A stretch of DNA of 64,000 nt from Pseudomonadota bacterium (GCA_039187035.1 JBCCZS010000001.1:2284-66283); one strand, 5' to 3'; counted from the stretch's first letter, positions 7,293 through 52,783 are shown. The notes: a model not told the origin generated them from the letters alone. Numbers and translations: made by a program.

Positions 7293-7440
7293 CGCGCGGT
7301 CGACGGCGGCGATCGACAGTCGTCGTCTCCGCCCACCGGACCCTTTCCATCGAGACCGATGCGGGTCGGCGCCGATACGCGCGCTTTACCTGCTCGGCTC
7401 GGGCCGTTTACGCGGTCGACCAAGAAAACGGAGAAGGCTC

Positions 7441-34383: not shown

Positions 34384-36531
34384 TTACAAAGCGACGTCGA
34401 CGGAGATGCCGTAGACGCGCCGCGGGCCGAGGGTCGCGCAGCAATCGAAATCGATTACGCCGTCGGCGTCGAAATCGAACGTATCCTGATAGACGAAGTA
34501 GTCCTCGTTGAAGGCGTTGTCGGCGAAGAGCATCACCATCAAGCCGTCGCCGCGCCACCCGCCGCGAAAGTTCGCGACGATATAGTCGCCCACGGGATCG
34601 GGCGGAAAGTTCTGGATGTCGCGGGAGAGATAGGCGTCGACATATTTCGCGTCGCCCCCGACGAAGAAGCCCGACGGCAAGACGTAGTTAAAGCCGCCGG
34701 CGATCGTCCAATTGGGCGCCTCCGGGAAGTCGGAGCCGGTGAGATCAAATTCCGTTGTGACGAATTCGTCAAACTCGGTCTCGACATAGCCGATCGAGGC
34801 GAAGGCGGACAATTCGGCCGTAATGTCGCCGCGCATCTCCAATTCAAAGCCGTAAAGGCTCGATTGCCCGGCGTTCGCCGTGATGACCGACTGAAAGTCG
34901 CCCGGTACGAGCTGCAATTCGACCTGCTGGTTCTGCCAGTCCGTATAGAAAGCGTTGGCGTTTACCGTCGCTTGGCCGTCGAAGAGTTCGCTGCGGAATG
35001 ACACTTCATACGTCCACGTTGTTTCTGCATCAAACGACGTAGCCGCCTCGGTCACAGGGTTGACGAAAACGCCGCCGGCGCGGAAGCCGCGCGCGGCCGT
35101 AAAGCCGATCGTGCGGTCCGGGAGGAATTCCCAGACGATCGAGCCCTTGGGAAGAAACTCGACGGAATCATCCGTTCCGCCGCCGATCGGAACGGCGGCG
35201 AGGGCGGGGTTGAAGGCGCCGGACGCCGCAAAGAGTTCCACGTCTTGCTCTTCATACTGAACGCGGCCGCCGGCGATAATGTCGACGGTCGGGAGGATCG
35301 GCCAGGTCGCCTCGCCGAATATCGCGACGTTGGTCGTGTCGATTTCTGCGGCCGTGGCGTTCGTGCTGCCGCCGCCGAAGAAGGTCGAGCGGCGGTTGAT
35401 GTCGCGCGTGTCCTCGGTCAGGTAGTAAAGGCCGGCGACCCACGAGACCGCATCTTCGCCCTTGTCGAAGTTCAGCAAGAATTCCTGCGTGATCAAACGT
35501 TGGTCGATCTCGCCGTTCGAGGTGAAGACCTCACCGGGCGTGCCTTCGTTGATCGAGGGTTTGTTGGTTTCCGAATAGGACGCCGTCGTCAGTGAGCGGA
35601 ACGACAGCGCGTCGGTCAGATCTTTCGTGACGTCGAACGAGAAGTTATGCGCCTCGCCTTCGCGATTATCTTGGAAGAAGGGTAGGCTGGCGTTCAGATC
35701 GCCGCGACGCGCGCTGTAGGGAAAGCCGAGCCCCGGGCCGGCGATATCGTCATAGTGCGGAGAATCGGCCGAGTAAGAATAAGTGAGCAGGCCGCTCCAC
35801 CCGGGAAGGGCGTCGGGCTCGATCAGAAGTTTGCCGCGGATCTGATAATATTCGTCGTCGATGAAGTTGTCGAAACGATCAAAGCCGCTATAGCCCTGAT
35901 AGTTGAGATCGCTCTCTTCGGTCTGGAATTCGGCGGCGATCCGAAACGCGATTTGGTCGTCGAGGATCGGCCCGCCGAACGCGACGCCCGCTTGCCAGGT
36001 TTCGAGCGTGCCGACCGTCAGGTTGGCTTGCGCTTCCCATTCGTAGGTCGGGTTGTTGGTGGTGACGTAAATGGCGCCGGCGAGCGCGGCGCGTCCTGAA
36101 AGCGTCGATTGCGGGCCGCGATAGACCTCAATTTGCGACACGTCCCAGGCGCCGCGCGCGCCGCGCCTCGCGCCTTGGACCGTTTGCTGGGCGCCGTCGA
36201 TGTAAAGCGCCGCGAGCGGGCTGCCGCCCGGCGTCAGCCCTTCTGAGTTGACGCCGCGAATGATGAAGCCCGCGTCCGACCAGTCGGCGTCGAGAATGTT
36301 CGCCGAGACGCGGAAGGCGTCACGAAAGCTCTGGATACCGAGTTCGCGAATTTGCTCTTCGGAAACGACCGCGACGCTCGCTTGCGTATCTTGCAAGGTG
36401 CGGCCCCGTTTCTCGCCGAAGACGATAATTTCGTCGTCCTCGATTTCCTCGACCGGTTGCGCGAGCGCGGCGCCGGCCGAGCACAGAACGGCGAGCGCGC
36501 TCGCCCCTAATAGAATCCCTTTGAACGTCAT
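34384..36531 (-). CDS. TonB-dependent receptor
   Basis: Signal MTFKGILLGASALAVLCSAGAALAQ, plug motifs (IEVYRGPQSTLSGRAALAGAIYV), and a beta-barrel. Confidence 0.9.
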   Translation of the reverse strand: MTFKGILLGASALAVLCSAGAALAQPVEEIEDDEIIVFGEKRGRTLQDTQASVAVVSEEQIRELGIQSFRDAFRVSANILDADWSDAGFIIRGVNSEGLTPGGSPLAALYIDGAQQTVQGARRGARGAWDVSQIEVYRGPQSTLSGRAALAGAIYVTTNNPTYEWEAQANLTVGTLETWQAGVAFGGPILDDQIAFRIAAEFQTEESDLNYQGYSGFDRFDNFIDDEYYQIRGKLLIEPDALPGWSGLLTYSYSADSPHYDDIAGPGLGFPYSARRGDLNASLPFFQDNREGEAHNFSFDVTKDLTDALSFRSLTTASYSETNKPSINEGTPGEVFTSNGEIDQRLITQEFLLNFDKGEDAVSWVAGLYYLTEDTRDINRRSTFFGGGSTNATAAEIDTTNVAIFGEATWPILPTVDIIAGGRVQYEEQDVELFAASGAFNPALAAVPIGGGTDDSVEFLPKGSIVWEFLPDRTIGFTAARGFRAGGVFVNPVTEAATSFDAETTWTYEVSFRSELFDGQATVNANAFYTDWQNQQVELQLVPGDFQSVITANAGQSSLYGFELEMRGDITAELSAFASIGYVETEFDEFVTTEFDLTGSDFPEAPNWTIAGGFNYVLPSGFFVGGDAKYVDAYLSRDIQNFPPDPVGDYIVANFRGGWRGDGLMVMLFADNAFNEDYFVYQDTFDFDADGVIDFDCCATLGPRRVYGISVDVAL

Positions 36532-37037
36532 CGGTCACCCCTGGTTGCGATTATACAAGCTCCGAGATATTGTATACGATCATTCGCGTGCAGTGCAGCA
36601 AGAAATTAACCCTGCAGCGAATGACATGCAATCGCAAGAGTTTGGTGCGGTTTCTTTATTCGTTTCCGCACGCGCCGCGCGCGCCGTAACTCAGTAGACG
36701 AACGATTGTTTCGCGCGCCCTCCTTGGCGGAGCGGCGGTCCCGCACTCTTCTCTAAGGGCACATCTATGCGGGCGGACCGGGCAGGCGGGTCTCGGAAAA
36801 AAGCGTTCGTCGCGCGACCGCGCGTCTTTTAGGGGGCGCGCGACTGCATGTCGGCGGTAATGGCCGATTGCCAAAGGCCGCCGTTCGCCTACAGTCCTTG
36901 AGATTCACTCGCAACAGCCGGCGGCGCCGGGGTTTGGGATTGGCGAGCATGGCCTGGCGCGACGCCGGCATATCGAACGAACCGTCGGCGTTGACGCCCG
37001 ATCGCCCGCGATTTTCACGCGATCGAGGCGCGTCGCC

Positions 37038-37670
37038 ATGAGCGAGGCGCGACGCTTAAAGCGCGGTGGCGGCGCCGCGGCGGACGCCGGCGCCCCGCCG
37101 CAGGCCGAGGCCCCAGCGATCGGGGCCCCAGCCATTGACGACCACGGCGGGGCCGCAGACCGCAACCGGGTCACCGCCCTTTACAGCGATTACGCCGCCC
37201 AACTGTCGGCGACCCTGCGCAGCATTTATGGCGACGGGCCGCCCGATCCCGACGACGTCGCCCAACAGGCGTTCCAAAATGTAATGGAGCGCGGCGACAT
37301 CGGATCGGTCAAAAACCTCAAAGCGTTCGTTTGGCGCACGGCCCGCAACCTGATCTTCAAAGCGCACCGAACCCGCGAAACGCGGGCGCGATACGATTAT
37401 GAGATCGATCAGCTGTTTTTTCCGCTCCGGACCGACGAACTGACCCCTGAAAGGATCATAGTAGCAAGAGAGCAATTGCAGGCGATCAACCGGGCGTTGC
37501 TGGAGATGCCGCCCAAGCGACGGCGCGCCTTCCTCCTGCACCGGTTGCACGGGCTGACGGTGTCCGACGTCGCCCGAAGGCTAGGCGTGAGCCGGTCGAC
37601 GGCGGACGAGCACATCGTCCGCGCCGCGACCGAAATCAACAGGCTCCTCCTCGATATGACGGAGACATGA
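37038..37670 (+). CDS. ECF (FecI-type) RNA polymerase sigma factor
   Basis: Sigma-70 region 2 (DDVAQQAFQNVME...) and region 4 (LEMPPKRRRAFLLHRLHGLTVSDVARRLGVSRSTADEHI). The exact start is uncertain. Confidence 0.85.
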   Translation: MSEARRLKRGGGAAADAGAPPQAEAPAIGAPAIDDHGGAADRNRVTALYSDYAAQLSATLRSIYGDGPPDPDDVAQQAFQNVMERGDIGSVKNLKAFVWRTARNLIFKAHRTRETRARYDYEIDQLFFPLRTDELTPERIIVAREQLQAINRALLEMPPKRRRAFLLHRLHGLTVSDVARRLGVSRSTADEHIVRAATEINRLLLDMTET

Positions 37671-38737
37671 GCATGCCGGATACATCCAGCCGTTTCGACG
37701 CGGACGACGTTCTCTACGTCGCCCACAAATGGCGGTCGCTGCTCAACAGCCCCGATGCGACGGACGCGGATCGCGCGCGTTTCGAGGCGTGGATTGACGC
37801 CGATCCGCGGCACGCGGACGTCTTCGGCCAAGCCGTCACCTTTTGGGAGGCGTTCGGACACGTATCGCAAAGCGATCTCGACCCGGAAACGCTGAAGCCG
37901 GTCGTTCGCGAACGGATCGCGCACTTTGTCGGGGCCGTGGCGGCGGTCGCCGCGACGCCGGCGGTACGCGTCGCGAGGGCGGCCGCGGTCGGCCTCGTAA
38001 TCGTCGGCGCCGTCGTGCTCAACGGCGTCGGCGCGCCGCGAATGGCGGCGGCGCCCGTCGTCGCGGCCTATTCAACGGCGAAAGGCGCAGTGAAGTCGGT
38101 CGCCCTCAACGACGGGTCGACGATCACCATGGGGCCTGAGACCAGCCTCGAGGCGACCTATTCCGCTAACGCGAGACGCATTCGGCTCACGACGGGCGCG
38201 GCGTATTTCGACGTGGCGCGCGACGCGGCGCGGCCGTTCTCGGTGGAAGCCGGCGACTTGGAGGTGGTGGCGCTGGGCACCGCGTTCGACGTGCGCGGCG
38301 GCGACCGGGTCTGGCGCGTCGCGGTGGCGGAAGGCGCGGTCGACGTCGCGTATCCGCCGGCCACCGATGGGGCGACCGACGAGACGCTCGGCGCGCAGGC
38401 GACGTCGAGAAACCTGTCCGCAGGGGAACAGATCGCCGCGACGCGCACGCGCGGCTTGTCCGAGGTGAGCCCCATCGCGCCCGTCGACGTCGGGGCCTGG
38501 CGATCCGGCCGACTATTCTACGACGGCGCGTCGCTCCGCGAGGTGGTGTCGGACCTCAACCGATACTCCGAGACGCCCATAATGATCGACGACGGCGGCG
38601 AGGGAATCGCCGACCTTCGCTTACGCGGCGGTTTCCGCGCCGACGATATCGACGGCTTGCTCAACGCGACGGCGTTCATTCACCCCGTCACGATCGATCG
38701 CAGCGATCCCGACGTCGTCGTGATCCGCGCGCGCTGA
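37667..38737 (+). CDS. FecR-family anti-sigma / transmembrane sensor
   Basis: ATGA overlap with the sigma gene. N-terminal RFEAWIDADPRHA, a single TM segment, and a FecR domain (VALGTAFDV...). Confidence 0.85.
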   Translation: MSMPDTSSRFDADDVLYVAHKWRSLLNSPDATDADRARFEAWIDADPRHADVFGQAVTFWEAFGHVSQSDLDPETLKPVVRERIAHFVGAVAAVAATPAVRVARAAAVGLVIVGAVVLNGVGAPRMAAAPVVAAYSTAKGAVKSVALNDGSTITMGPETSLEATYSANARRIRLTTGAAYFDVARDAARPFSVEAGDLEVVALGTAFDVRGGDRVWRVAVAEGAVDVAYPPATDGATDETLGAQATSRNLSAGEQIAATRTRGLSEVSPIAPVDVGAWRSGRLFYDGASLREVVSDLNRYSETPIMIDDGGEGIADLRLRGGFRADDIDGLLNATAFIHPVTIDRSDPDVVVIRAR

Positions 38738-38872
38738 ACCGACGGGGCGGCGGCCCGCCGTCGATTGCAGAATTCATCCCCGCATCGCCCGGTAAATCCG
38801 ATCGGTCAGGAGTCATAGGATCGGAGAAGCGAACGCGAGCCGTTCGCGGGGCTTAGCGTCTAGGGGTATGAA

Positions 38873-41449
38873 ATGGGGCTGACTGTCCGTAACCGCCGGG
38901 CGACGTCCGCGCTGTGCAGCGTCGCGTCGTGTCTGGCTTTAGCGACGGCGACGCCCGCCGCCGTCGCGCAAGAACCCGTCGATGCGGCCGCCGCCGCGCC
39001 AATCGACATTCCGGCGGGGCCGTTGGGAAATGCGATCAACAGCATCGTCCGGATTTACGGCGTCAACGTGCTCGTCGATGAATCCCTCGTCGAAGGACGC
39101 GACGCGCCGGCCGTTTCCGGCGAATTGACGATCAACGGCGCGCTTGATGCGCTGCTCGCCGGCTCGGGCCTCGAGGCGACATACCTCACGGACGGAACCG
39201 TCGTTATCGCCCGACAACGCGCCGCGACGGACGCCGATGCGCCCGTCGACGCCGAGGTCCGAACCGCCGATACGATCGTCGTGACCGGCCAAAAGCGCGA
39301 ACGCACGCTCCTGGAAAGCGACGTGTCGGCGACGGTGCTCGGCGCCCGCGATATCGAGGAGTTGCGCCTTCGCGACATCCGCCGGCTCGACGACGTCGTC
39401 CCCAACGTGCAGTTCGCCCAGGGCAGCCAGGTGAGCCCGGTGTTCGCCTCGATCCGGGGCATTGAATCAAACCCCGCCATCGTCAACCGCGCCGCCATTT
39501 ACATCGACGGCGTGCCGTTTCGCGAGTTGAGCAACGCGGTGCTCGACCAGATTGAATCGATCGAGGTTCTGCGCGGCCCGCAATCGACGCTCTACGGCGC
39601 CAATAGCGAGGCGGGGCTGTTCATCATCAACTCCCGGCAGCCGACCGAGGCGTTTGAAGCCGAATTTCGCGCCGACGCGTCTGCTTATAATGGCGACTAC
39701 GCCTATAATTTCAGCGGATTTGCGGGCGGGCCGCTGATCGAAGACACGCTCTTCGGTTCGGTCGTCGTCAGCTACACGAACGAGGACTCGTTCTTACAAA
39801 ATCCGTTCGCGCCCGAGGTCTCCACGGCTGAAATACGAGATACGTTCGTCCAGGGGCGGCTCACCTTCACGCCGAACGACAGCCTAACGATTAAAGCGAC
39901 AGCCTACTATCTCGATGTCGAGGCGCCGGGCTTGTATGAAGGGGCGTTCGCGCCCATCGACACTGCGGCGTTTGACGACAACATCGCCTTCGATCCGTTC
40001 ACGCAGCAAGTTCTCGGGCCGTATATCGACGTCTTCCACGAGGGTCGCGAAATCGGCGATTGGGAGTTCTTCAGCGACACCGATCAATTGACCGAAGAGC
40101 GCGACGTCGTCGCCGGGTTCAGCCTGACCCAGGACGTGGGCGACGGCAAGATCGACCTTGCGGCGTCCTATTCAAATCTTGATGCGGACAGTTTTGGACT
40201 TGATATCGACTTCTCGGCCTTCCCGCTCCAGGTCGGCTTCGCCAATGACGAGTTGACGGTCTGGTCCGGCGAGCTTCGTTACACGTCCCCCGACAGCGAC
40301 GTTTTCGAATACATCGTAGGCGTCTCTTTCTACAAGGACGAACGCGTTAGCGAGCGAAACGTGACCTTCGCCGACCCGTTCAACGGCGGGTTCTTGCCGT
40401 TTGACGAAATCCCGGAATTGTTCGCCGAGAGCGAAGATTACGCCGTGTTCGGATCGGGGAGTTTCGGCTTAGGGGCGCCGGGGCTTAAAGGGACGATCGG
40501 GCTGCGTTACGACAACGCGACCCGGCGCGCGAGCCAGGAGGGCTATGAAGTCACGTTCGGTCAGCAGACGCTCTTTTTGTTGGACGCGGAAGGCGAGACG
40601 ACCTTCGAGCAATGGTTGCCGCGGTTTTCCGTGAACTACGAAGCGAGCGACCGGTTCAGCGTTTTTGCAAGCGCGTCGCGCGGATACATTCCCGGGGGGT
40701 TCAACATCGCGGCGTCGGCTGATCCGACCGTTGCGGAGGATATCTTCCGCTTCGACGAAGAGAAGATCTGGAATTATGAGATCGGCGTGAAGACCATTTT
40801 TCCGGACGGCCGCGGGTACCTCAACGCCGCCGTCTTTTACATCGAGTCCGACGGGTGGCAGGAAGTGCAGCTTCTAACGGACCCGGTCACGGGATCGATT
40901 ACGACGCCCACGTTTTTGTCCGCCGACGCCGACATCGTCAGCAAGGGTTTTGAAATCGAAGGGGTTTATCGCCCGATCAACAATCTCAAAATCAGCGCAA
41001 GCTTCGGATATACCGATGCGGAGTATCGAAACTTCGACTTCGAGGTCGGCGCGCGGGGGCAAATCGCTCAGATTGAAGATCTGAGCGGCGCCGGGGTGAA
41101 ACTCGTTCCGGAATATGACCTCAACGTGTCCGCGCTCTATGAATTTAGTTGGGGCGGTTATGTCCGCGGCGAAATCAACGGCCAGGGCGACATGCCCTTG
41201 GAGGAACGCACGCGCGAAATCGACCCGTTCGCCGATCGGGCGGTGCAAGAAGCGGTGACGCGCTTTAATCTCTACGCCGGTTATGAAACGGCCGGATATT
41301 CCCTTTCCGTCTTCGCTGAAAATATCACCGACGAACGCGTCGTTTCCGGCCTGGCGTTTCAAAACCTCTTCTTCGGGAATGACGGCACGTTTTACGGCCC
41401 GCTCGACGCCCCGCGGGTCGTGGGCGTCGAAGTCGAGGCGCGTTTTTAG
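38873..41449 (+). CDS. TonB-dependent transducer (receptor with N-terminal STN signalling domain)
   Basis: IDIPAGPLGNAINSIVRIYGVNVLVDESLVEGRDAPAVSGELTINGALDALLAGSGL before the plug. Terminal VEVEARF. Confidence 0.9.
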   Translation: MGLTVRNRRATSALCSVASCLALATATPAAVAQEPVDAAAAAPIDIPAGPLGNAINSIVRIYGVNVLVDESLVEGRDAPAVSGELTINGALDALLAGSGLEATYLTDGTVVIARQRAATDADAPVDAEVRTADTIVVTGQKRERTLLESDVSATVLGARDIEELRLRDIRRLDDVVPNVQFAQGSQVSPVFASIRGIESNPAIVNRAAIYIDGVPFRELSNAVLDQIESIEVLRGPQSTLYGANSEAGLFIINSRQPTEAFEAEFRADASAYNGDYAYNFSGFAGGPLIEDTLFGSVVVSYTNEDSFLQNPFAPEVSTAEIRDTFVQGRLTFTPNDSLTIKATAYYLDVEAPGLYEGAFAPIDTAAFDDNIAFDPFTQQVLGPYIDVFHEGREIGDWEFFSDTDQLTEERDVVAGFSLTQDVGDGKIDLAASYSNLDADSFGLDIDFSAFPLQVGFANDELTVWSGELRYTSPDSDVFEYIVGVSFYKDERVSERNVTFADPFNGGFLPFDEIPELFAESEDYAVFGSGSFGLGAPGLKGTIGLRYDNATRRASQEGYEVTFGQQTLFLLDAEGETTFEQWLPRFSVNYEASDRFSVFASASRGYIPGGFNIAASADPTVAEDIFRFDEEKIWNYEIGVKTIFPDGRGYLNAAVFYIESDGWQEVQLLTDPVTGSITTPTFLSADADIVSKGFEIEGVYRPINNLKISASFGYTDAEYRNFDFEVGARGQIAQIEDLSGAGVKLVPEYDLNVSALYEFSWGGYVRGEINGQGDMPLEERTREIDPFADRAVQEAVTRFNLYAGYETAGYSLSVFAENITDERVVSGLAFQNLFFGNDGTFYGPLDAPRVVGVEVEARF

Positions 41450-41870
41450 GCGCCTTCCCGAGAAACGCCGTCCGTAAACCGCCCGGGTCGCCCGCCGCTG
41501 AGCCGGCGGCGGGCGGCGGCGATGTCGTCGCCGTCGCACGGCGCGCCATAACCCTGTCGCGGACCGATTGTCGGCGCTGCTCGCCCCGGCCCGTTGCGGG
41601 CGGAGACCGGCGTCTTCCCGCCTGCGCGCCCGAAACGACGCGTTGTCCCGTCAATACGCCGACAATTTCGCCGCGGTCTGTCGACGCCGGCGGGGATATG
41701 CCCTAAGCATTTATGCAATTGTGAGGCATTCTCAGATCAAGCGGTTCGCGACGGCGCGCCCGAAACGCCCGCGGGGAAGACGTAACGGGCGCCTGCGCCG
41801 TCGCATTCTCGGCGACGCGCGCGTTCATGCGCACGCGCGGATCGTCGGCGCGGCGGCCTGCGAAGGACCG

Positions 41871-41915
41871 CGCCCGATCCGTTTGCGCCCGATCCATTTG
41901 GGCCCGACCGGTTTG
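41871..41915. repeat. Three tandem 15-bp direct repeats
   Basis: CGCCCGATCCGTTTG / CGCCCGATCCATTTG / GGCCCGACCGGTTTG, read directly. They lie 168 nt upstream of the flavoprotein ATG. Confidence 0.9.
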
Positions 41916-42082
41916 CGACGACTGCGGATTATCGGCGGAGACGGAATAAGCAGCGTTCAACGCGCCGCTCGCCGCCGATGCCCCTGCGCGAGGCTTCACG
42001 ATCGGCCCATGCGTCGTATAGCCTTCGGGCGAATTTCGGATCCGCGTCGCGCGCTCGGGCGAACAACAGTAAAGCTGCACCC

Positions 42083-43150
42083 ATGACCATACATCCCGTT
42101 ATCATAGTGGGCGCCGGGCCGGCCGGCGTCGGCGTCGCCTCGCTTCTGTCGCAATGCGCGATTCCCGCCCTGATTTTGGAACGAGGCGTGGTCGGTCAGA
42201 GCTTGCTGGATTGGCCGAAGGAGACGCGCTTCATTTCGCCGTCGTTCACCGGGAATTTCTTCGGCGCGGTCGACTTGAACGCCGTCACGCCGGGAAGCTC
42301 GCCCGCCTTCGGGTTGCAAGCCGAACACCCTTCCGGCCGTCAGTATACAAAATACTTAAGCGATTTGGTCGAACATTACGGCTTGAAGATCGACGAAGGC
42401 GTCGACGTCGAAGACGTTGACGTGGAGGACGACGGGCTCATTACGCTCTCCACAAACGAAGGCGAGGTGCGCTGCCGGGTGCTGATATGGGCCGGCGGCG
42501 AATTTCAGTATAAAAAGACGATCCCCGGCACGGTGCGCGTCGGCTCGTCGTACAAAGATATTCCCGTCGGACGCCACGTCATTATCGGCGGTGCGGAAAG
42601 CGGCATGGAGACGGCCTATAATCTGGTCAAATACGGCTCCACCGTCAGCGTCATCGACCCCGCCGCGCCTTGGGCCAAGCGCGTCAGCGATTCAAGTTAC
42701 GGGCTGAGCCCCTTCACCTTCGCGCGCGTGCGTTCGTTGCAGAAGGGCGGACAAGCCGAGTTCTTTGCAGAATTCGCCGAACATATCGGCGAAACTGAAG
42801 TGCGGACGAACAACCGCGTGTTCAATCTGGAACATCCGGCGATAGACGCGACCGGTTTCGACATTCGCCAAAGCCTCGCCGGAAAGCTCTTCGATTTTTC
42901 CGACGGCTACCCCGCGCTAACCGATCGCGACGAAAGCACGAAACATAAGAACGTCTATCTCGTCGGCCCGAACGTGCAGCACGAGAAGGCGATCTTCTGC
43001 TTCATCTACAAATACCGCCAGCGCTTCGCCGTCATCGTGCGCGAGATTTTGAGCCGTTGGGGCGAACAAAGTTCGGTTATCGACGAATACGCGGCCTCTA
43101 ATTTTCTGCTCGATGATTTGAGCTGCTGCGACGGGGAATGCGAATGCTAA
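42083..43150 (+). CDS. NAD(P)/FAD-dependent oxidoreductase with Cys-rich C-terminal tail
   Basis: VIIVGAGPAGVG and a second dinucleotide motif VIIGGAESGMETA. It ends ...LLDDLSCCDGECEC. Confidence 0.8.
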   Translation: MTIHPVIIVGAGPAGVGVASLLSQCAIPALILERGVVGQSLLDWPKETRFISPSFTGNFFGAVDLNAVTPGSSPAFGLQAEHPSGRQYTKYLSDLVEHYGLKIDEGVDVEDVDVEDDGLITLSTNEGEVRCRVLIWAGGEFQYKKTIPGTVRVGSSYKDIPVGRHVIIGGAESGMETAYNLVKYGSTVSVIDPAAPWAKRVSDSSYGLSPFTFARVRSLQKGGQAEFFAEFAEHIGETEVRTNNRVFNLEHPAIDATGFDIRQSLAGKLFDFSDGYPALTDRDESTKHKNVYLVGPNVQHEKAIFCFIYKYRQRFAVIVREILSRWGEQSSVIDEYAASNFLLDDLSCCDGECEC

Positions 43151-44172
43151 GCGCGCCGTTGCAGACCGCGGCGGATTTCATGTCCGGGCGCGGCTCGTTG
43201 ATCGCTTTGATTGCGGCGATCCTCTTCGGCTCGGCGTTCGGCATGGCGCGCCCCGAGGCCGGCGCCGCGCTTGCGGGCAATATCGACGCCACAATTTTGT
43301 TGCTCGTCTTTTTGCTGCTTTTTGAAGTGCGGATCGAGAATATCGTGTCGAGCCTCAACCGCGCCGGGTTTATCGGCGCGGCGTTGGTCGCCAACTTCAT
43401 CATCATTCCCGTGCTCGGATTTGCGATCGCGTCGGTCTTCCTTGCCGGGCGCCCGCTGTTCGCCGTCGGTCTCGTGATTTATTTCATGGCCCCGTGTACG
43501 GACTGGTTTTTGGGCTTCACGCGGCTTGCGAAAGGCAACACCGCGCTCGGCGCCGCGCTGTTGCCGATCAACATGATCGTCCAGCTTCTGCTGTATCCGT
43601 TCTATCTGCAGCTCTTCGGAATCGACGCGGTTGAAAAGAGCGCGGGCGCCGTCTTTCAGACGTTAGGCCAATGGTTCCTCGCCCCGCTCGTCGCGGCGGC
43701 CGTTTTCCGTTTTTTGGCCGACCGGCTTTTCTCCGAGCGTTTGGCTCAACAGGTTCAATCCGCCGTTTCGATCGTTGTGCCGGTGTTGTTGGCGGTTTTG
43801 GTCGGCCAGATCGCCGCCGCCAATATTGAGACGTTGACGGCGAACGTCGGCGTTTTCCCGCTTATCCTCGGTGCAATCTTTCTCTTCTTTGTACTGACCT
43901 ATTTCTTGAGCGAAGCGATTTCGAAGCTCATGCGGTTGCGCTACGAGGATCGCGTGCTCATGACGATGACGACCGCCGCCCGCAACGCGCCGCTCATGCT
44001 TGCGCTGACGATCGCGGTGATCCCCGATCAGCCGACGATCTACGCGGCCATCGTTATCGGCATGCTTATCGAGCTCCCGCATTTGGTGGCGTTGAAGACG
44101 ATCCTCGTGCGCCGCCGCGCGGCGACGGACGCCGCCGTCGCGACGTTCGGCGGGGAGCCCTTGGCCCGGTAA
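43138..44172 (+). CDS. ACR3/BASS-fold permease (arsenic-resistance-protein-like)
   Basis: About 10 predicted TM helices. Region VGLVIYFMAPCTDWFLGF with a membrane-embedded Cys. 13-nt overlap with the upstream gene. Confidence 0.7.
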   Translation: MRMLSAPLQTAADFMSGRGSLIALIAAILFGSAFGMARPEAGAALAGNIDATILLLVFLLLFEVRIENIVSSLNRAGFIGAALVANFIIIPVLGFAIASVFLAGRPLFAVGLVIYFMAPCTDWFLGFTRLAKGNTALGAALLPINMIVQLLLYPFYLQLFGIDAVEKSAGAVFQTLGQWFLAPLVAAAVFRFLADRLFSERLAQQVQSAVSIVVPVLLAVLVGQIAAANIETLTANVGVFPLILGAIFLFFVLTYFLSEAISKLMRLRYEDRVLMTMTTAARNAPLMLALTIAVIPDQPTIYAAIVIGMLIELPHLVALKTILVRRRAATDAAVATFGGEPLAR

Positions 44173-44226
44173 AGCCGGCGCAACGAATGTCCTCGCAGCC
44201 GAGGAACAGCTTGGAGGTTAGGCGCC

Positions 44227-44448
44227 ATGATCTCAGATCAACGATCATTTGAGACGTATGACGACTGGAAGCACTGCATCACCGTGTTGTGCGGCATCCC
44301 GCTCACCGCGCCTTACATACAAGACCGCCTGCAAACGCTTCGCGATCCTTCGGACTACGGAACGCAGAAATTCATCGCCACCTGGGGCGAGGGGCATCTT
44401 CAGCGCGTTATCGGTTGGTTCGAACAGGCCGAGCGCGACTATCGATAG
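44227..44448 (+). CDS. Small hypothetical protein (73 aa)
   Basis: GGAGG RBS and an ATG 54 nt after the permease. Non-Arg-rich composition, unlike the spurious ORFs. I recognise no family. Confidence 0.55.
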   Translation: MISDQRSFETYDDWKHCITVLCGIPLTAPYIQDRLQTLRDPSDYGTQKFIATWGEGHLQRVIGWFEQAERDYR

Positions 44449-44958
44449 CGATACGGATGAGCGGTCGCCGAACGGCGCTTGGAGACGTCTACAAGCGTAC
44501 TCGCGGCGCTCACGGCCCAAGCGGGCTTTCCCGGCGCCAGCGCGCCGGCGAGACGCGTAATCCTTGCGGCGTCTCTCCAAATACGCCGGCGATCAAAACC
44601 GCGCCGGCGACTTGAAGCCGGTTTTAGACGGCCGCGCCGGTCGATCGGCTTGATGTCGGTGCAAAGCCAAGGCGCTGAGCGAACCGGTCCGGCTACCCGG
44701 GGCGTCGCCTCTCGGCTTGGCTCCAGCGGCGTTTCGGCCGTCGGTTCCCGGCTGACCGTTGCGGGTACGGCCCCGGATTCGCCCCGGGTTCCCTCTTAGC
44801 CTTCATCGCGAAGGCGCCGTCAGGCGCAGGCGGTCTTGCACGCTCGCCGGCAAGTCAATAGCTCTCGCAGGCGTGTTGCAGAAACGCACGCCCGATAACG
44901 GGGCGGGCGCAAGGCGCTTCGCCGGAGCCTGCGCCGAGGCGGGAAAGCAGAGATCGAT

Positions 44959-46062
44959 ATGGACCTTCCTTGTTTCACCGTGACCGGCGACCCGGACGAA
45001 ATGGGTCGTCAGTACGGATCGCTTTGCGGAGACCGCATTCATGCGTTCGTCTCCAACAGGATGTCGGCGGTCGAGGCGTACCTTGGGGACAGGGGGTTTA
45101 ACGGCACGTCCGAGCTGATCGAAGCGGGCGCGCGGTGCCTGGAGATCGTCGGCGCGTTCGATCCGCGGGGGAGCCGGGAACACCGGGCGATCGCCGAGGG
45201 CGCGCAGATTGATCCGGTTCGCTTGTTCACCGCCGCCAACATGACCGACGTTCGCGACGTCATCATTCTCCCTGGCGATCCCGACGTCTTAGAAGACGAA
45301 GGCTGTACGGCCGCGCTCTTGCCGCCCGACGTCACCTCGGGGGGCGCGAGCCTCCAAGGACAGACTTGGGATCTCAACCCGCCGGACGTCCAATACGTGA
45401 TCGCGCTTCATCAGATCCCGGACGCGGGGCCGGAGACATGGACGGTCACGTGCGCCGGGTGTCAGACGCTCATGGGCATGAACGAGCATGGCGTGACGGT
45501 CGGCACCACCAACCTCAAGACCCGGGGCGCCCGGGTGGGCGTACCATACCTCTCGGTTCTTCATCTGGCGCTTCGGCAAACGTCGCTGGAAGCCGCGAGC
45601 GCCGTGGTGGAAAACGCCCCCGTCGCCGGCAGCCATTCCTATTGGATCGGCGACAAGAGCCGCGCGATCGAATGGGAACGCACGCCGACCGCCGCTTACG
45701 CCCGGACGACGGAAAACGGGGCGCTCGTGCGCTCAAACCACTGCCTTTTCGATGAGAACATACGGCTTGAAACGGATCTTTCGGAAAGCACCCATGCGCG
45801 GTTTGACCGGATGCGCACGCTGATCGACCAGTCCGATCGCCACACGACGGCGTCGATGATCGAGATGTTCGCCGACCGGTCCGACGGCCGTTTGGGCGTC
45901 AACCGGTTTCCGGAGGACCAATCGGGCGCGGCGACGAACGCCGTCGTCGCCATGAACCCCGCCTTTTTGGTGTTCCGCGCCTGCCGGGGTAACGCGTTTA
46001 ATGGGGTTTGGACGACGCTTCGCTTCGAACGCGCGCCCCGCGCGCGCGGCGGCGCGGGCTAA
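44959..46062 (+). CDS. C45 family peptidase / acyl-CoA:6-APA acyltransferase-like Ntn hydrolase
   Basis: N-terminal GDPDEMGRQYG and the candidate autoprocessing/nucleophile site EDEGCTAALL. Confidence 0.8.
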   Translation: MDLPCFTVTGDPDEMGRQYGSLCGDRIHAFVSNRMSAVEAYLGDRGFNGTSELIEAGARCLEIVGAFDPRGSREHRAIAEGAQIDPVRLFTAANMTDVRDVIILPGDPDVLEDEGCTAALLPPDVTSGGASLQGQTWDLNPPDVQYVIALHQIPDAGPETWTVTCAGCQTLMGMNEHGVTVGTTNLKTRGARVGVPYLSVLHLALRQTSLEAASAVVENAPVAGSHSYWIGDKSRAIEWERTPTAAYARTTENGALVRSNHCLFDENIRLETDLSESTHARFDRMRTLIDQSDRHTTASMIEMFADRSDGRLGVNRFPEDQSGAATNAVVAMNPAFLVFRACRGNAFNGVWTTLRFERAPRARGGAG

Positions 46063-46373
46063 AACTTCTCTTTTTGAATGACTTCGATCGGCGACAGGTA
46101 GACGATGCCGGAATACTCGCTGAAATAACTGTCGGCGATTTCGGTCGCCAGCGCCCGCGCCACGTCGTCTTTCGCGAAGATCGCTTCGATCCGGATGATC
46201 GAAAAGGCCTTGACCACGGTTGCTCTGTCGCCGGAGCGAAGGAAATGCTCGCCCTTCCCGCTCCCGTCGACGATCGTGTAGCCCGTCGCGCCGGCGGCTT
46301 CGATCTTCGCGATCAGGCTTTTTTGGAGAAGGCGCTCGGCGACGATCGTGATTTTGCTAGCTGGGTGAAACAT
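46059..46373 (-). CDS. sbtB: PII-like signalling protein SbtB
   Basis: It aligns by eye along its whole length with cyanobacterial SbtB (KITIVAERLLQKSLIAKIEAAGATGYTIV..GSGKG......IRIEAIF....A..LATEIADSYFSEYSGIVYL). It lies directly downstream of sbtA. Confidence 0.75.
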   Translation of the reverse strand: MFHPASKITIVAERLLQKSLIAKIEAAGATGYTIVDGSGKGEHFLRSGDRATVVKAFSIIRIEAIFAKDDVARALATEIADSYFSEYSGIVYLSPIEVIQKEKF

Positions 46374-46400
46374 AGATCCTTCCGTAGGCGCTTGCAGCGA

Positions 46401-47432
46401 TCACGCGAAAACAATCTCTGAGAGGGCGACGAAAAACGGGATGCAGACGGCGATCGCCACCGGCGTCCCGACGCTCGTCGACGAACCGATATAGGCGGCG
46501 GGATTTGCGCTTGGAATGCCGGCCCGCAAGGTGGGCGGCCCCGAGATGTCGGAATTCGACGCCGCGATAACCGCAAGGATCACGGCGCCGCCCGGACTGA
46601 AGCCCACGGTTTCGTGCGCGATCCAGCCGAGCCCGAAACCGATGAAACCGTGCACGATCGGCGCGACGACGGCGTAAAGCAGATACCAATGCGCCACGCG
46701 GCGCAGCTCCGCCAATCGCGACCAGGCCTCCATTCCCATGATCAGCATCAAAATGGAGAGAAAGCCCCGAAACAAGGGCTTATAGAATTCCTCGTGAACG
46801 GATGCGGGTTGGGCGACCAGCCCCAAAACCAGCCCCAAAATAAGCGCGGACAGTGCGGAGCCCTGCAAACTGTCGACGACGATGCTCCTGACGCCAATGT
46901 TTTCCGATCGCGCCGCTTTCCGGACCTTTCCCGACGCCGATCCCAGTCGCGCAAGCACGATCGCCAACACTAACGCGGGGATGTCCATGAACGGATAGAG
47001 CGCGGGCGCCCAGGCTTCAAAGTCGATCGCCCGCTCGTCGAGGACGATCATCGCGGCCGCAAGCGTTGAAGCGCTGACCGCGCCGAAAAGCCCCGACGTC
47101 GCCAAGGCGTCCGCGCGGCTAACGCCCGGCAGCCGCATCAGCGTGACGAGGCCGATAAGAACGCACGCGCAGCCCGCGACCGCCGCAAAGAGCGCCGGCA
47201 GCGCCAGCGCGCCCAGGTTGGCCTCGCGGATCTCCATCCCGCCCTCAAGCCCGATCGACATGAGCAGTATAAAGACGATAAAGCGATAGATCGCGTCGGG
47301 AATGGAGAGCCGGCTCCCCGTGGCCCCCAAAGCCATCCCGCCGAGGAGAAACGCAAGCGTCGGCGATCGCAACTGCGCCAGAAAATTCTCACCAAACGAT
47401 AGGGCGAAATCCACGGCGACCTCAGCGTACAT
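46401..47432 (-). CDS. sbtA: Sodium-dependent bicarbonate transporter family permease SbtA
   Basis: Strong identity blocks with cyanobacterial SbtA: LRSPTLAFLLGGMALGA, ALYPFMDIPALV, PLFRGFLSILMLIMGMEAWSRLAELRRVAHWY, SDISGPPTLRAGIPSANPAAYIGSST. Confidence 0.85.
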   Translation of the reverse strand: MYAEVAVDFALSFGENFLAQLRSPTLAFLLGGMALGATGSRLSIPDAIYRFIVFILLMSIGLEGGMEIREANLGALALPALFAAVAGCACVLIGLVTLMRLPGVSRADALATSGLFGAVSASTLAAAMIVLDERAIDFEAWAPALYPFMDIPALVLAIVLARLGSASGKVRKAARSENIGVRSIVVDSLQGSALSALILGLVLGLVAQPASVHEEFYKPLFRGFLSILMLIMGMEAWSRLAELRRVAHWYLLYAVVAPIVHGFIGFGLGWIAHETVGFSPGGAVILAVIAASNSDISGPPTLRAGIPSANPAAYIGSSTSVGTPVAIAVCIPFFVALSEIVFA

Positions 47433-47789
47433 CGAGCCGCCCCGCTCCCGGCGGGTCGACACGGGATCCGATCGAACAGCGCGCGCCGGACACCGCGCGG
47501 CTTGGCGCGCCGCGCGCGGCTGTGCGGCGCCAACGACGACGCGCGCCTGCAAACGGGCGAACCCGCCGCGGAACGACGACGCGACGACGATCTTTACCGG
47601 GCGTCGCCGCGCCTACGCAAACGCCCTCGCCGATCGCTGGCCCCGCATCCGATTTCACCGGCGCAGGCGGCGAAACCATGCGCGCGTTGGGAACGACGCG
47701 ATTGTCGCGCTCGAAGACCGTTTTGTGATAAACGCCGTTTTCTTGCGTCGTCGCCCGCAGAGCGGCGCCGTAGCTGAGAGGCCCGCGAA

Positions 47790-48863
47790 ATGGACACGGT
47801 CGATCTTGAAGAGACGTCGCGGCGTCTGCCCGTCTCGGTGATATCCGGGTTTTTGGGCAGCGGGAAAACGACGTTGCTCAACCATCTGTTGGGGCGGCCC
47901 GAGCTCGCGCGAACGCTGGTGATCGTCAACGAGTTCGGCGAGATCGGGCTCGACCATCAACTCATGGCGCACAGCGCGGACGACGTCGTCGTCGAAATGT
48001 CGAACGGGTGCTTTTGCTGCACCCTTCGGCGCGATCTCGCCAAGACGTTGCGCGAAGCGCCGTGGCGCTTTTCGCGGGGCGGGGCGCTGTGGTTCGATCG
48101 CGTCGTGATTGAGACGACCGGCATCGCCGATCCCGCCCCGATCATCAACACGCTGATGAGCGATCCGAAGATCGCGGAGCGTTATCGATTGGACGGCGTC
48201 GTCGTCACGGTCGATGCGGCGAACGGCGAGGAGACGCTCGATCGCCAGATAGAGGCCGTCAAACAGGCGGCCGTCGCCGATCGTTTGGTCCTGACAAAGA
48301 CGGATCTTGTGAACGACGACGCTTTACGCCGCCTGCAAGATCGATTGCGGGTCTTAAACCCGGCCGCGCCCCATTTGGCCGCACAACACGGCGTCGTTGA
48401 TCCCGCGTCTCTGTTTGACGCCGGTCTCTACGACCCGAAAACAAAGAGCTTCGACGTTCAGAATTGGCTCAAAGCGGAAGCCTACAACGATGCCGAAGGA
48501 GGCGGGGGTGGAGCTGCCGGGCGAGCGCGGATGCGCCGACACGCCGAAGACATCCAGTCGGTCTGCCTAACGATTGACGAACCCGTCCGCCAAGGCGCGA
48601 TCGATCGCTGGTTCGACGCGCTGCGCCATCTTAAGGGTGCGGACTTTTTGCGAATGAAAGGCCTCATAAACGTCGCCGACCGAGATGGCCCGACCGTCGT
48701 GCACGGCGTTCAGCACATTTTCCATCCTGTCGTCGCCTTGAAGGAATGGCCGAGCGAAGACCGCCGTTCACGGATCGTCTTCATCACGCGCGATATCGAC
48801 GAAGCGGCGTTGCGCGACACGCTCTCGACGCTTACTGGCGCCGGCGGCCCGCCGCACCAGTAG
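47790..48863 (+). CDS. CobW/COG0523 family G3E GTPase (metal chaperone)
   Basis: P-loop GFLGSGKTTLLNHLL, CxCC motif GCFCCTL, and a CobW C-terminal domain. Confidence 0.9.
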   Translation: MDTVDLEETSRRLPVSVISGFLGSGKTTLLNHLLGRPELARTLVIVNEFGEIGLDHQLMAHSADDVVVEMSNGCFCCTLRRDLAKTLREAPWRFSRGGALWFDRVVIETTGIADPAPIINTLMSDPKIAERYRLDGVVVTVDAANGEETLDRQIEAVKQAAVADRLVLTKTDLVNDDALRRLQDRLRVLNPAAPHLAAQHGVVDPASLFDAGLYDPKTKSFDVQNWLKAEAYNDAEGGGGGAAGRARMRRHAEDIQSVCLTIDEPVRQGAIDRWFDALRHLKGADFLRMKGLINVADRDGPTVVHGVQHIFHPVVALKEWPSEDRRSRIVFITRDIDEAALRDTLSTLTGAGGPPHQ

Positions 48864-49093
48864 GGTCTGGGCGGTCCGGCCGGAACGCCCGCGATCTTCG
48901 CGGGAAGCCGCCGCTATCGGCGACCGACATCGCCGGCGCCTCAAATCATCGTCGTCCGCCATGCCGCAAAGGCTTGCGCGTCCGAGCGGGCGCGATCTTT
49001 GGGCAGATTGTCACAAGCCGGGGGCGCACCGTTCTGTTGCATCGCAACGAGGTTATCGGCCATGCTTCGGCGCTCCGCAAAACAGGCTCGGAT

Positions 49094-50686
49094 ATGTCGA
49101 TATCAGTGTGGACGGTTTGGTTGGTCGCGTGTTTCTCCGCCTGCTGCATGGCGTCGTCGTCGTCGGCGGCGGCGGCGCAAATCCTCTACCGAGGGAACGA
49201 CGGCGACCCCGAAACCCTCGACCACCACGGCACGTCGGTCATCTCAGAATCGAGGCTCATGGACGATCTTTATTCGGGCTTGGTCGATTTCTCGGCGAGC
49301 GCGACGGTCGCGCCGGGCACGGCGGAGCGGTGGGACATCTCCGAGGACGGGCTGACGTATACGTTCTATCTGCGAGAAAATGCGGCGTGGTCGAACGGCG
49401 ATCCCGTTACGGCGCAGGATTTCGTATTCAGCTATCGCCGCCTCATGAACCCGGCGACGAACGCGAAATACGCCACCATCCTCTACCCGATCAAAAACGC
49501 TGAGAAGGTCAATACCGGCGCATTGGAGCCCGCCGCGTTAGGCGTAAGGGCGATTGACGCGCGAACCTTGGAAATCACGCTTGAGCAGCCCACCCCCTAC
49601 TTCCTCGACCAGTTGACCCACCAGACCGGCAAGCCGCTCCACCAGGCGTCGGTCGAGGCGCTTGGCGACCAGTTCGTCAAGCCCGGCAATATGGTGACCA
49701 ACGGCGCTTATGTTCTTGCCGAGTTCGTCCTCAATGATCGGATCGTGATGCGCAAAAACGACTATTTCTATGATGCGGACAACGTCGCGATCGAGGAAGT
49801 CCATTATATTCCGTTCGAAGATCGCGCGACGTGCGTGCGTGCATGGGAGGCGGAAGAAGTGCACGTCTGTTCGGATCTTCCGGCCCAAGATCTTCAACGG
49901 CTCGCGCGGTATGGGGACGCGTTGAAAGTCGAGCCTTATCTTGGGACGTATTTCTACGCGTTCGACACGACGGACGAGATTTTGTCCGATCCAGAGGTCC
50001 GCCGCGCCATGTCGATGGTGGTGGATCGCGAGTTTCTCGCCGACGAGATTTGGCCGGGCATGATCCCTGCCGCGAGCCTCGTGCCTGTGGGCATCAACAA
50101 TTACCCGGGCGGCTCGCCGGTTACGGACTATTTCGGCATGTCGATGTTGGACCGAGAAGACGAGGCCGCGGCGATCATGGCGCGCAAAGGCGTCACGAAG
50201 AAAAATCCGATCACGATCGAGTTTATGTACAATAGCGGCGAGAATCACAAAAATACTGCGACGGCGATCGCCGACATGTGGTCCCATATCGGCATCAACG
50301 TCACCTATAAAATACGGGATGTCGCGGCGCATTACGCCTACCTTAGAGACCGGGGGAAAATGCAGGTCGCGCGCGCCGGTTGGATCGGCGATTATTCCGA
50401 CCCCCACAATTTTCTGTTTCTCTTGGAGTCCCATAATACGGGCTTTAACTACGCGAAGTATGAAAACCCGGACTATGATGCGATCATGGCGCGCGCGGCG
50501 AACGAGTTGGATCTTGTAAAACGTGCGGACATCCTGCGTGAGGCCGAGCGGATCGTCATGCGCGATACGCCTTTTCTGACGATCTTCTATTATTCCTCGT
50601 TCGGTCTCGTGTCCCCTAAGATCCGCGGATGGGAAAGCAACGTCATGAACAAAAACCTGACGCGTTACCTGACGTTGGACGACTAG
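49094..50686 (+). CDS. Peptide/oligopeptide ABC transporter substrate-binding protein (family 5)
   Basis: Signal MSISVWTVWLVACFSACCMASSSSAAA, then SBP_bac_5-type motifs (TYTFYLRENAAWSNGDPVTAQDFVFSYRR). Confidence 0.9.
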   Translation: MSISVWTVWLVACFSACCMASSSSAAAAQILYRGNDGDPETLDHHGTSVISESRLMDDLYSGLVDFSASATVAPGTAERWDISEDGLTYTFYLRENAAWSNGDPVTAQDFVFSYRRLMNPATNAKYATILYPIKNAEKVNTGALEPAALGVRAIDARTLEITLEQPTPYFLDQLTHQTGKPLHQASVEALGDQFVKPGNMVTNGAYVLAEFVLNDRIVMRKNDYFYDADNVAIEEVHYIPFEDRATCVRAWEAEEVHVCSDLPAQDLQRLARYGDALKVEPYLGTYFYAFDTTDEILSDPEVRRAMSMVVDREFLADEIWPGMIPAASLVPVGINNYPGGSPVTDYFGMSMLDREDEAAAIMARKGVTKKNPITIEFMYNSGENHKNTATAIADMWSHIGINVTYKIRDVAAHYAYLRDRGKMQVARAGWIGDYSDPHNFLFLLESHNTGFNYAKYENPDYDAIMARAANELDLVKRADILREAERIVMRDTPFLTIFYYSSFGLVSPKIRGWESNVMNKNLTRYLTLDD

Positions 50687-50738
50687 ACCTCATGATCTTG
50701 ACGACACGGCGCCGTCGGATCTCCGGCCGGAGACTCCC

Positions 50739-52782: not shown

Positions 52783-52783
52783 G

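Follow-up and report, generated by a model that had tools for sequence, protein, structure and literature searches.

The stretch of DNA analysed here—the window, 64,000 nucleotides (nt) from a 67-kb contig in the metagenome-assembled genome of a Pseudomonadota bacterium (GCA_039187035.1 JBCCZS010000001.1:2284-66283)—carries, at positions 42,083 to 44,448, a cassette of three genes: for a flavoprotein, for a permease and for a small protein of 73 amino acids (aa). The closest described relative of the flavoprotein is PDB 3D1C, the 'flavin-containing putative monooxygenase' NP_373108.1 of Staphylococcus aureus Mu50, a JCSG (Joint Center for Structural Genomics) entry. It is probably the oxidoreductase of an S. 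aureus operon that also encodes a COG0523 GTPase and a putative iron transporter. The operon carries a Zur box, its control being ascribed to Zur (PMC13586535), and in strain Newman the genes NWMN_2481-2483 are induced 43-, 83- and 152-fold by calprotectin (PMC5480029, Table 1). The window flavoprotein and 3D1C match as family members over their full lengths, down to a C-terminal cluster of cysteines (...YSCCEVSCTC in 3D1C). They are only 33% identical, however, and the membrane partner in S. aureus is not an ACR3-like permease but a FeoB-like protein, as it is in Anoxybacillus (locus L085), where the flavoprotein gene overlaps the FeoB-like gene.

The permease has its closest described counterparts in the ACR3 antiporters (TIGR00832), with which it shares the ten-helix BASS-type fold, a cysteine in the fourth transmembrane helix (TM4) and a glutamate late in the sequence. 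Transport by Acr3 requires both residues, Cys129 and Glu305 in the As(III)/H+ antiporter of Corynebacterium glutamicum (PMC3317726, section 3.2). Among the loci related to ours, however, permeases of the window type occur in no ars operon; they sit with genes of the Zur regulon, instead.

Four other flavoproteins invite comparison. YpdA/Bdr (PDB 7A7B, 7A76), a bacillithiol disulfide reductase, has the same two Rossmann domains, uses flavin adenine dinucleotide (FAD) and NAD(P)H, and likewise lacks a CxxC disulfide, but identity is about 21% and YpdA has no C-terminal cysteine cluster; nor are we aware that YpdA is linked to Zur or to transporters. MerA with its importers serves as a working analogy only: a C-terminal pair of cysteines in that flavoprotein receives metal from the cysteine-bearing membrane proteins MerT and MerC. 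MerA reduces Hg(II) and possesses a redox-active disulfide (CxxxxC), whereas the flavoprotein here has no such disulfide and no close sequence relationship to it. In Streptomyces ars clusters, ArsO, a flavoprotein of the same broad class, lies next to an ACR3-type gene, as the flavoprotein does here, but here no ars genes lie nearby. And in Bacillus subtilis the flavoprotein CzcO, encoded beside CzcD, is reported to assist this Zn/Cd membrane transporter; CzcD differs from our permease in belonging to the cation-diffusion-facilitator (CDF) family, in carrying out efflux and in responding to metal excess rather than starvation. A Zur-regulated 'oxidoreductase' of C. glutamicum, Cg0795, was also considered, but we do not equate it with the flavoprotein. 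Literature searches in which Zur was paired with flavin, ACR3 or bile-acid symporter turned up no description of the flavoprotein–permease pair, and those on 3D1C yielded nothing of use.

We read the cassette as a zinc-starvation module. That it belongs to a Zur regulon we hold, from comparison of sequences and gene order, with high confidence; that it is a Zur-regulon module that works by handing off a thiophilic metal we favour with moderate confidence; and what we say below about which way transport runs, what is carried and what the flavin does is tentative. What is new here is an uncharacterized flavoprotein family and a mislabelled ACR3-like permease within Zur regulons that are otherwise well studied. 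The parts of the cassette are as follows:

42083..43150, + strand: flavoprotein with two dinucleotide folds, for FAD and NAD(P)H, 3D1C family; 355 aa, Pfam Pyr_redox_3 at 3e-69, C-terminal CCx3CxC
43138..44172, + strand: BASS-fold, ACR3-related permease; 344 aa, Pfam SBF at 2.6e-16, Cys120 (FMAPCTDWF) and Glu312
44213..44448, + strand: GGAGG ribosome-binding site and gene for a 73-aa four-helix protein with W-K-H-C-I-T-x-x-C and GExH motifs

These landmarks all lie where an earlier note, made by eye from the sequence, had placed them. The flavoprotein gene runs from an ATG at 42083 to a TAA stop at 43148-43150, with VGAGPAG at residues 9-15, GGAESG at residues 169-174, and a C-terminal end (...DDLSCCDGECEC) whose final residues are CCDGECEC. 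The permease gene, starting at the ATG at 43138, overlaps the end of the flavoprotein gene by exactly 13 nt (ATGCGAATGCTAA); the start annotated by NCBI is an alternative ATG at 43144, which shortens the overlap to 7 nt. The small open reading frame (ORF) occupies 44227-44448, and its GGAGG, at 44213-44217, lies 9 nt 5' of the ATG. Homologues at E <= 1e-3 number 1912 for the flavoprotein, 730 for the permease and 160 for the small protein, and with so many homologues apiece all three are real coding genes rather than chance ORFs.

The evidence for Zur comes largely from the surroundings of relatives. A scan of species-representative genomes yielded 185 relatives, from which we kept 80 loci, and these were compared by tblastn and clustering of neighbouring genes. 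Genes of the Fur family, confirmed by Pfam, occur at 18 of these loci, and COG0523/CobW genes occur within 8 kb at 15; at L008, L009, L011, L015 and L026, zur lies directly upstream of the flavoprotein gene on the same strand. Canonical Zur boxes (TGTTATNNNATAACA, with up to 1 mismatch) were counted in the 450 bp that precede the flavoprotein gene and in the rest of the loci. Eleven fall in the 34.7 kb of upstream sequence versus five in the remaining 1,020 kb, so that upstream sequence is enriched 65-fold in boxes. Loci from two cultured organisms illustrate this. Verticiella sediminum has, in order, the small protein, a Zur box, fur, cobW, cobW, a paralogue of the L36 gene (rpmJ), the flavoprotein (tail GECCEGCEC), the permease and fur; and a Shimia contig has a Zur box, the flavoprotein, the permease, another Zur box and ZinT. 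Orthologous loci in several phyla thus have Zur operators or neighbours from zinc regulons, and it is on these—zur, COG0523/cobW, ZinT, the L36 paralogue and the Zur boxes—together with the remnant of a zur gene in the window, that the assignment to Zur is based.

The usual companion of the flavoprotein is the permease. The permease gene is directly downstream of the flavoprotein gene at 47 of 79 related loci, including all of the approximately 30 from alphaproteobacteria, usually with the same stop/start overlap, and the pairing recurs in Bacteroidota, Balneolaceae, Calditrichia, Marinamargulisbacteria, Peribacteria and one metagenome-assembled genome of Woesearchaeota. Where there is no permease, the next gene encodes a conserved 95-aa membrane protein, predicted to have three helices, at 19 loci, and a FeoB-like protein at 5. 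The gene for the 95-aa protein, which has no Pfam match, overlaps the flavoprotein stop (at L041, L042, L044, L046, L075 and 14 other loci, mostly in Bacteroidota). MerC and HupE/UreJ genes also recur near the flavoprotein gene, and the MerC family adjoins it at 6 loci. The FeoB-like, MerC and HupE/UreJ alternatives are all metal-cation membrane proteins. The cassette described in the earlier note is a conserved unit; the 73-aa gene, adjacent at 15 loci, is not a fixed third member.

The flavoprotein family itself is sharply defined and widespread, of the 3D1C type, and marked by its C-terminal cysteine cluster. The window protein matches Pfam PF13738 (Pyr_redox_3) across the entire profile (positions 1-305 of 305) at 234 bits, far above the cut-off of 30. 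The more specific models fall well short: the YpdA model, TIGR04018, scores 60.4 bits where 339.9 are needed, and the ArsO model, NF040505, one of the weak NCBIfam matches, scores 32.8 where 425 are needed, and over residues 6-142 only. A profile of the family matches 3D1C at E 1.3e-109, full length and tail included; the next-best PDB match is YpdA/Bdr, at E 2.7e-27. Structural comparison agrees: the AlphaFold2 (AF2) model (confidence, pLDDT, 84) superimposes by Foldseek on 3D1C with a TM-score of 0.86 and on YpdA/Bdr with one of 0.72. Besides its full-length similarity to 3D1C and CCx3CxC at the C-terminus, the window protein has the other, invariant motifs of the family, ISPSFTGNFF, SDSSxxLSP and FCFIYKxRQRF. 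The active-site cysteine of YpdA (GGGPCG) is alanine here (GAGPAG), as it is at this position, 14, in more than 90% of the family.

The earlier note named absence of the cysteine tail from orthologues, together with failure of the three genes to co-occur elsewhere, as grounds for giving the proposal up; the tail proves to be thoroughly conserved, and the proposal is not refuted in this way. CCx3CxC is found at the very C-terminus in 114 of the best 120 homologues, at identities as low as 41%, and at 80 of 80 genome loci from many phyla; tail-bearing homologues include some from Bacteroidota and Spirochaetota, at 41-46% identity, as well as proteins from eukaryote transcriptomes. Exceptions among the 120 include two fragments, two proteins in which the first cysteine is replaced by histidine (P0048 and P0119) and one in which it is replaced by serine. 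Exchange of cysteine for histidine is typical of a metal ligand. That the tail binds metal is plausible. One of the eukaryote transcriptome homologues, P0047, carries a histidine-rich insert (HDDHHNHDHHCHHHGHN) after about residue 115 of the alignment; its histidine-rich stretch, THDDHHNHDHHCHHHGHN, is of the kind typical of zinc-binding loops.

Turning to the permease, the earlier note called it ACR3-related, and in fold and key residues it is. It matches Pfam PF01758 (SBF) at 60.3 bits, above the cut-off of 24.3, and its closest solved relatives are transporters of the bile-acid/sodium type (E 5e-7 to 1e-2). ACR3 is its nearest named family, but the NCBIfam acr3 model, TIGR00832, scores only 68.7 bits (E 5.3e-19) where 282.8 are needed. 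Genuine ACR3 proteins from ars operons are 24-26% identical to it; alignment with one of these, from Bacillus mycoides (24% identity; gene order arsR-acr3-arsC-arsD-arsA), leaves 14 invariant columns only. Cys120 and Glu312 are among them, aligned with the two residues that Acr3 needs, and the surroundings of the cysteine differ: APCTDWFLGFT in the permease versus ARCIAMV in ACR3. NCBI labels the permease 'arsenic resistance protein'. The same label is attached to a homologue of 33% identity on an S. aureus plasmid (NZ_CP134069.1; L089, 3809-4762), whose gene is divergent from genes for an ArsR/SmtB regulator and a CDF transporter, an arrangement that suggests a role for this subgroup with divalent metal, not arsenic. 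We read the permease, from its residues and its relatives, as a member of a sister group of ACR3 that has kept the thiolate/carboxylate site, and whose substrate would be a divalent, thiophilic metal.

How might such a cassette work? The permease would be a secondary transporter, equipped with the Acr3 thiolate/carboxylate pair and an additional aspartate beside the cysteine (C-T-D), and it would move Zn(II), or a thiophilic complex of zinc, across the inner membrane. The flavoprotein, co-translated and cytosolic, might then take the metal onto its flexible C-terminal cluster of thiolates, much as the C-terminal cysteine pair of MerA takes it from MerT/MerC, while the FAD/NAD(P)H centre would either keep the tail cysteines reduced, or gate the release of metal by oxidizing them. 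The 73-aa helical protein would be a separate protein of the Zur island, probably with a Cys2-His site, and might serve as a small adaptor for handling zinc. A more pointed version, which we consider doubtful, is that the pair imports zinc in a novel way, by means of a secondary transporter of the ACR3/BASS fold with a Cys-Asp-Glu site in the membrane, and a dedicated flavoprotein whose NAD(P)H-reduced tail thiolates would pull metal off the transporter and release it by redox switching.

No function has been assigned to the flavoprotein family, although a crystal structure was deposited in 2008 and although calprotectin probably causes one of its largest effects in S. aureus on a member. The family spans many bacterial phyla and the transcriptomes of marine eukaryotes, and in most lineages the pair is translationally coupled. 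Databases label the permease 'arsenic resistance protein', and if the proteins do handle zinc, a widespread misannotation stands to be corrected. Zinc acquisition would then have a new transporter fold and a redox component, with a candidate for uptake from zinc-poor seawater. If the pair is an importer, bacteria, archaea and marine algae would all share the system, which would be relevant to zinc acquisition in the ocean and to nutritional immunity in S. aureus; and if zinc handling proves mistaken, a conserved response to zinc starvation is left.

Three further features of the window bear on its regulation:

41911..42030, + strand: remnant of a Fur-family zur gene (a pseudogene fragment) with two in-frame stops, found by tblastn with the Zur proteins of L008 and L026
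41714..41734, + strand: degenerate operator-like palindrome of the Fur-family type, TGCAATTGTGAGGCATTCTCA, upstream of the zur remnant and the flavoprotein gene
47790..48863, + strand: COG0523/CobW-type GTPase, 3.3 kb 3' of the cassette; Pfam cobW at 2.3e-48, plus CobW_C

The zur remnant accounts for the 630-bp gap that precedes the flavoprotein gene. It is 50-55% identical over 40 aa to the Zur proteins used to find it (E 1e-7 to 4e-6), reaching 55% over 40 aa with the C-terminus of that from L026, and reads VCDDCGLSAETE*AAFNAPLAADAPARGFTIGPCVV*PSG. The palindrome was found with a position weight matrix (PWM) built from 8 boxes that occupy the equivalent position in related loci (consensus tTGCAAAtGATAATCATTCgC), with which both strands of the 64 kb were scanned. 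It is the best match in the window, and a weak one, scoring 16.1 versus 28-35 for the training sites. The second-best match, also weak, is at 36616, between the genes for a TonB-dependent receptor and an ECF (extracytoplasmic function) sigma factor. The two sites, 36616-36636 and 41714-41734, are imperfect palindromes similar to each other (GCGATTGCATGTCATTCGC, GCAATTGTGAGGCATTCTC), both in promoter regions of metal-related genes, and may represent a variant of the operator used by the host organism. Judged by its sequence, the region looks like a zinc-starvation island with a decayed local regulator gene.

A number of observations weigh against reading the cassette in this way, and they are best taken together. 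In the window, no canonical Zur box lies near the cassette, even with up to 3 mismatches allowed; apart from the remnant, the 64 kb yielded no Fur-family gene, and hence no intact zur. With a decayed zur, and a degenerate site in place of a canonical box, control of the window copy by Zur is putative. The boxes of the closest relatives contain a Fur-like core, AATGATAATCATT, and in that clade the cassette may be under iron control, to go by the boxes. The tail of the flavoprotein is one of just two segments modelled by AF2 with low confidence, the other being the invariant TGNFF loop (residues 56-60): at residues 350-355 pLDDT is below 50, and in the 3D1C entry 358 of 369 residues are modelled. 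With the tail so poorly predicted, and the crystal structure incomplete, neither a metal site nor contact between tail and flavin has structural support. The identification of 3D1C with the calprotectin-induced oxidoreductase (SA2370/NWMN_2483), probable as it is, was made from the numbering of accessions and from the gene order in Anoxybacillus, and we found no experimental work in the literature on family members linked to a permease. Finally, Zn(II) is redox-inert, which leaves the flavin with no obvious chemical role in moving zinc, and we know of no protein of the BASS/ACR3 fold that transports zinc.

Other explanations must therefore be weighed, and the one that survives best, unlikely though we consider it, accepts zinc starvation and dispenses with metal transport. 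The flavoprotein would be a YpdA-like reductase of low-molecular-weight disulfides that tunes a thiol buffer for zinc, or else a flavin-dependent substitute for a zinc enzyme, and the permease would carry an organic substrate. YpdA/Bdr is indeed the closest characterized fold; Zur regulons commonly hold zinc-independent paralogues, and those of HisI, FolE and ThrRS occur in the same islands as our genes; and organic anions are the usual cargo of BASS proteins. But the active-site cysteine of YpdA is missing, and the YpdA model is far from satisfied. The permease keeps the metal(loid)-binding cysteine of Acr3, rather than the Na+ and substrate motifs of BASS proteins, and it is replaced elsewhere by transporters of metal cations, which would not carry an organic substrate.

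Rather less probable, in our estimate, is export. Zinc importers, de-repressed in zinc starvation, would also admit toxic thiophilic metals such as Cd and Hg, and possibly Co, and the tail of the flavoprotein would capture these for the permease to expel; alternatively, the pair would trim a zinc overshoot. ACR3 proteins are exporters, a cysteine-rich tail and a membrane cysteine both favour soft metals, and the S. aureus plasmid homologue adjoins an ArsR/SmtB regulator and a CDF efflux transporter. Genes repressed by Zur normally serve uptake or the sparing of zinc, however, and the partners that take the place of the permease—FeoB-like, MerC and HupE/UreJ proteins—belong to families of importers.

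Iron is a somewhat weaker candidate again, and we think it improbable. The tail cysteines would hold an iron–sulphur cluster, and the flavoprotein would be a ferric-chelate or flavin reductase that supplies Fe(II), brought in by FeoB-like or other partners, to enzymes in which it can replace zinc; or the cassette would simply be regulated by Fur. The Fur-like core of the closest relatives' boxes fits, as does the FeoB-like partner in Bacillota and SAR324, and so does the location of the window cassette behind a set of genes for an ECF sigma factor, FecR and a TonB-dependent receptor. Siderophore reductases of the FhuF type have, moreover, a C-terminal 2Fe-2S motif that contains Cys-Cys. CC-x3-C-x-C within eight residues would be an unusual geometry for a cluster, however; such regulators and neighbours as have names point specifically to zinc (ZinT, the L36 paralogue, COG0523, boxes of the form TGTTAT-N3-ATAACA), and the S. 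aureus operon is attributed to Zur, not Fur (PMC13586535). Least likely of all, and in our view very improbable, is the detoxification of metalloids or organoarsenicals proposed in the earlier note, in which an ArsO-like flavin monooxygenase oxidizes or conditions an arsenical or thiol conjugate for export by an ACR3-type pump: the family resemblance, the retained cysteine and glutamate, the NCBI name and the weak ArsO match speak for it, but the ACR3, ArsO and YpdA models are all far below their cut-offs, true ars-operon ACR3s are distant, tblastn with ArsR, both types of ArsC, ArsD and ArsN1 found no match in the 64 kb (as the note had itself observed for arsR and arsC), clustering of neighbours at 79 related loci found no recurrent family of the ars type, and the neighbours that are conserved are zur, cobW, ZinT, the L36 paralogue and Zur boxes, instead.

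The 73-aa protein deserves a word of its own. Its 160 homologues are 64-77% identical to it, and a profile search with it gathered 308 representative clusters, nearly all of them stand-alone proteins of 60-110 aa; the same search, made for domain fusions, found none. AF2 predicts four helices with a pLDDT of 89.5, for which we found no fold match in the PDB, and there is no match in Pfam or NCBIfam. Conservation is highest at C22. C17 and H57 co-vary in presence and absence (80/37/3/19; Fisher 2e-6, with phylogeny ignored), and this pattern in the alignment hints at a Cys2-His site. The gene is found not only beside the flavoprotein gene but also within Zur islands that have no flavoprotein, which makes it a fellow member of the regulon rather than an obligate third subunit. 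One such setting is the Zur island of Pelagibius (L091), which comprises the 73-aa gene, CobW followed by an ABC transporter with an SBP5 binding protein, fur, and paralogues of HisI, FolE and ThrRS; a Zur-like box lies ahead of the binding-protein gene. At another locus, L004, on a metagenomic chromosome of 4.9 Mb, a group II intron (6167-7970; RF02003, with a reverse-transcriptase ORF) lies just upstream of the 73-aa homologue, within a Zur-like island that has two cobW genes, a HisI paralogue and an ABC transporter of the FecCD type.

Codon usage, judged by eye, had suggested that the three genes all favour codons ending in A or T and might have been acquired horizontally. We measured GC content at third codon positions (GC3) against 38 other window genes (0.794 +/- 0.037). 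The small gene is low (0.689; z -2.8, on 73 codons only) and the flavoprotein gene is lowish (0.736; z -1.6), within the range of window genes, so to this extent the impression was sound; the permease gene (0.809; z +0.4) is typical of the window, and for it the impression was wrong. With the permease gene typical, and the other two only mildly low, there is no case for horizontal transfer. Neither GC3 nor an index of the codon-adaptation type lends acquisition of the cassette any support, and we have rejected it.

Immediately upstream of the cassette is a cell-surface signalling uptake system (34384-41449), in which the gene for a TonB-dependent receptor, on the - strand, is divergent from those for an ECF sigma factor, an anti-sigma factor resembling FecR and a second TonB-dependent protein, a transducer that has an STN domain. 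Downstream, the window's CobW protein matches both the ZigA (144 bits) and the YjiA-type (201 bits) models of NCBIfam, in each case under the cut-off. Its gene begins a set on the + strand (47790-54430) that continues with a binding protein of the SBP_bac_5 family, a pair of permeases and a fused double ATPase, of the Opp/Nik type, and this set is a candidate for a metallophore or zinc uptake system. Adjoining CobW on the - strand (46059-47552) are genes for an SbtA-like Na+/bicarbonate transporter (Pfam Sbt_1, 2e-85) and, next, a small P-II-like protein; this pair may, we speculate, spare a zinc-dependent carbonic anhydrase.

A last curiosity concerns RNA. No riboswitch was found by Rfam upstream of the cassette, and the only Rfam match in the window is a cobalamin aptamer (RF00174; 34.2 bits, gathering score 31.5) on the - strand at 44722-44833, between the 73-aa and C45 genes and pointing to the 3' end of the cassette. 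It is a short form, lacking the large peripheral insert. Downstream of it we found no credible minus-strand ORF, terminator or remnant of btuB, and there is no cobalamin aptamer at this position in the 20 relatives scanned. In one relative, L007, a strong riboswitch (112.6 bits) occurs with btuB-btuF-btuC divergent from the flavoprotein gene. The aptamer in the window may be a relic, or it may drive a B12-controlled antisense transcript.

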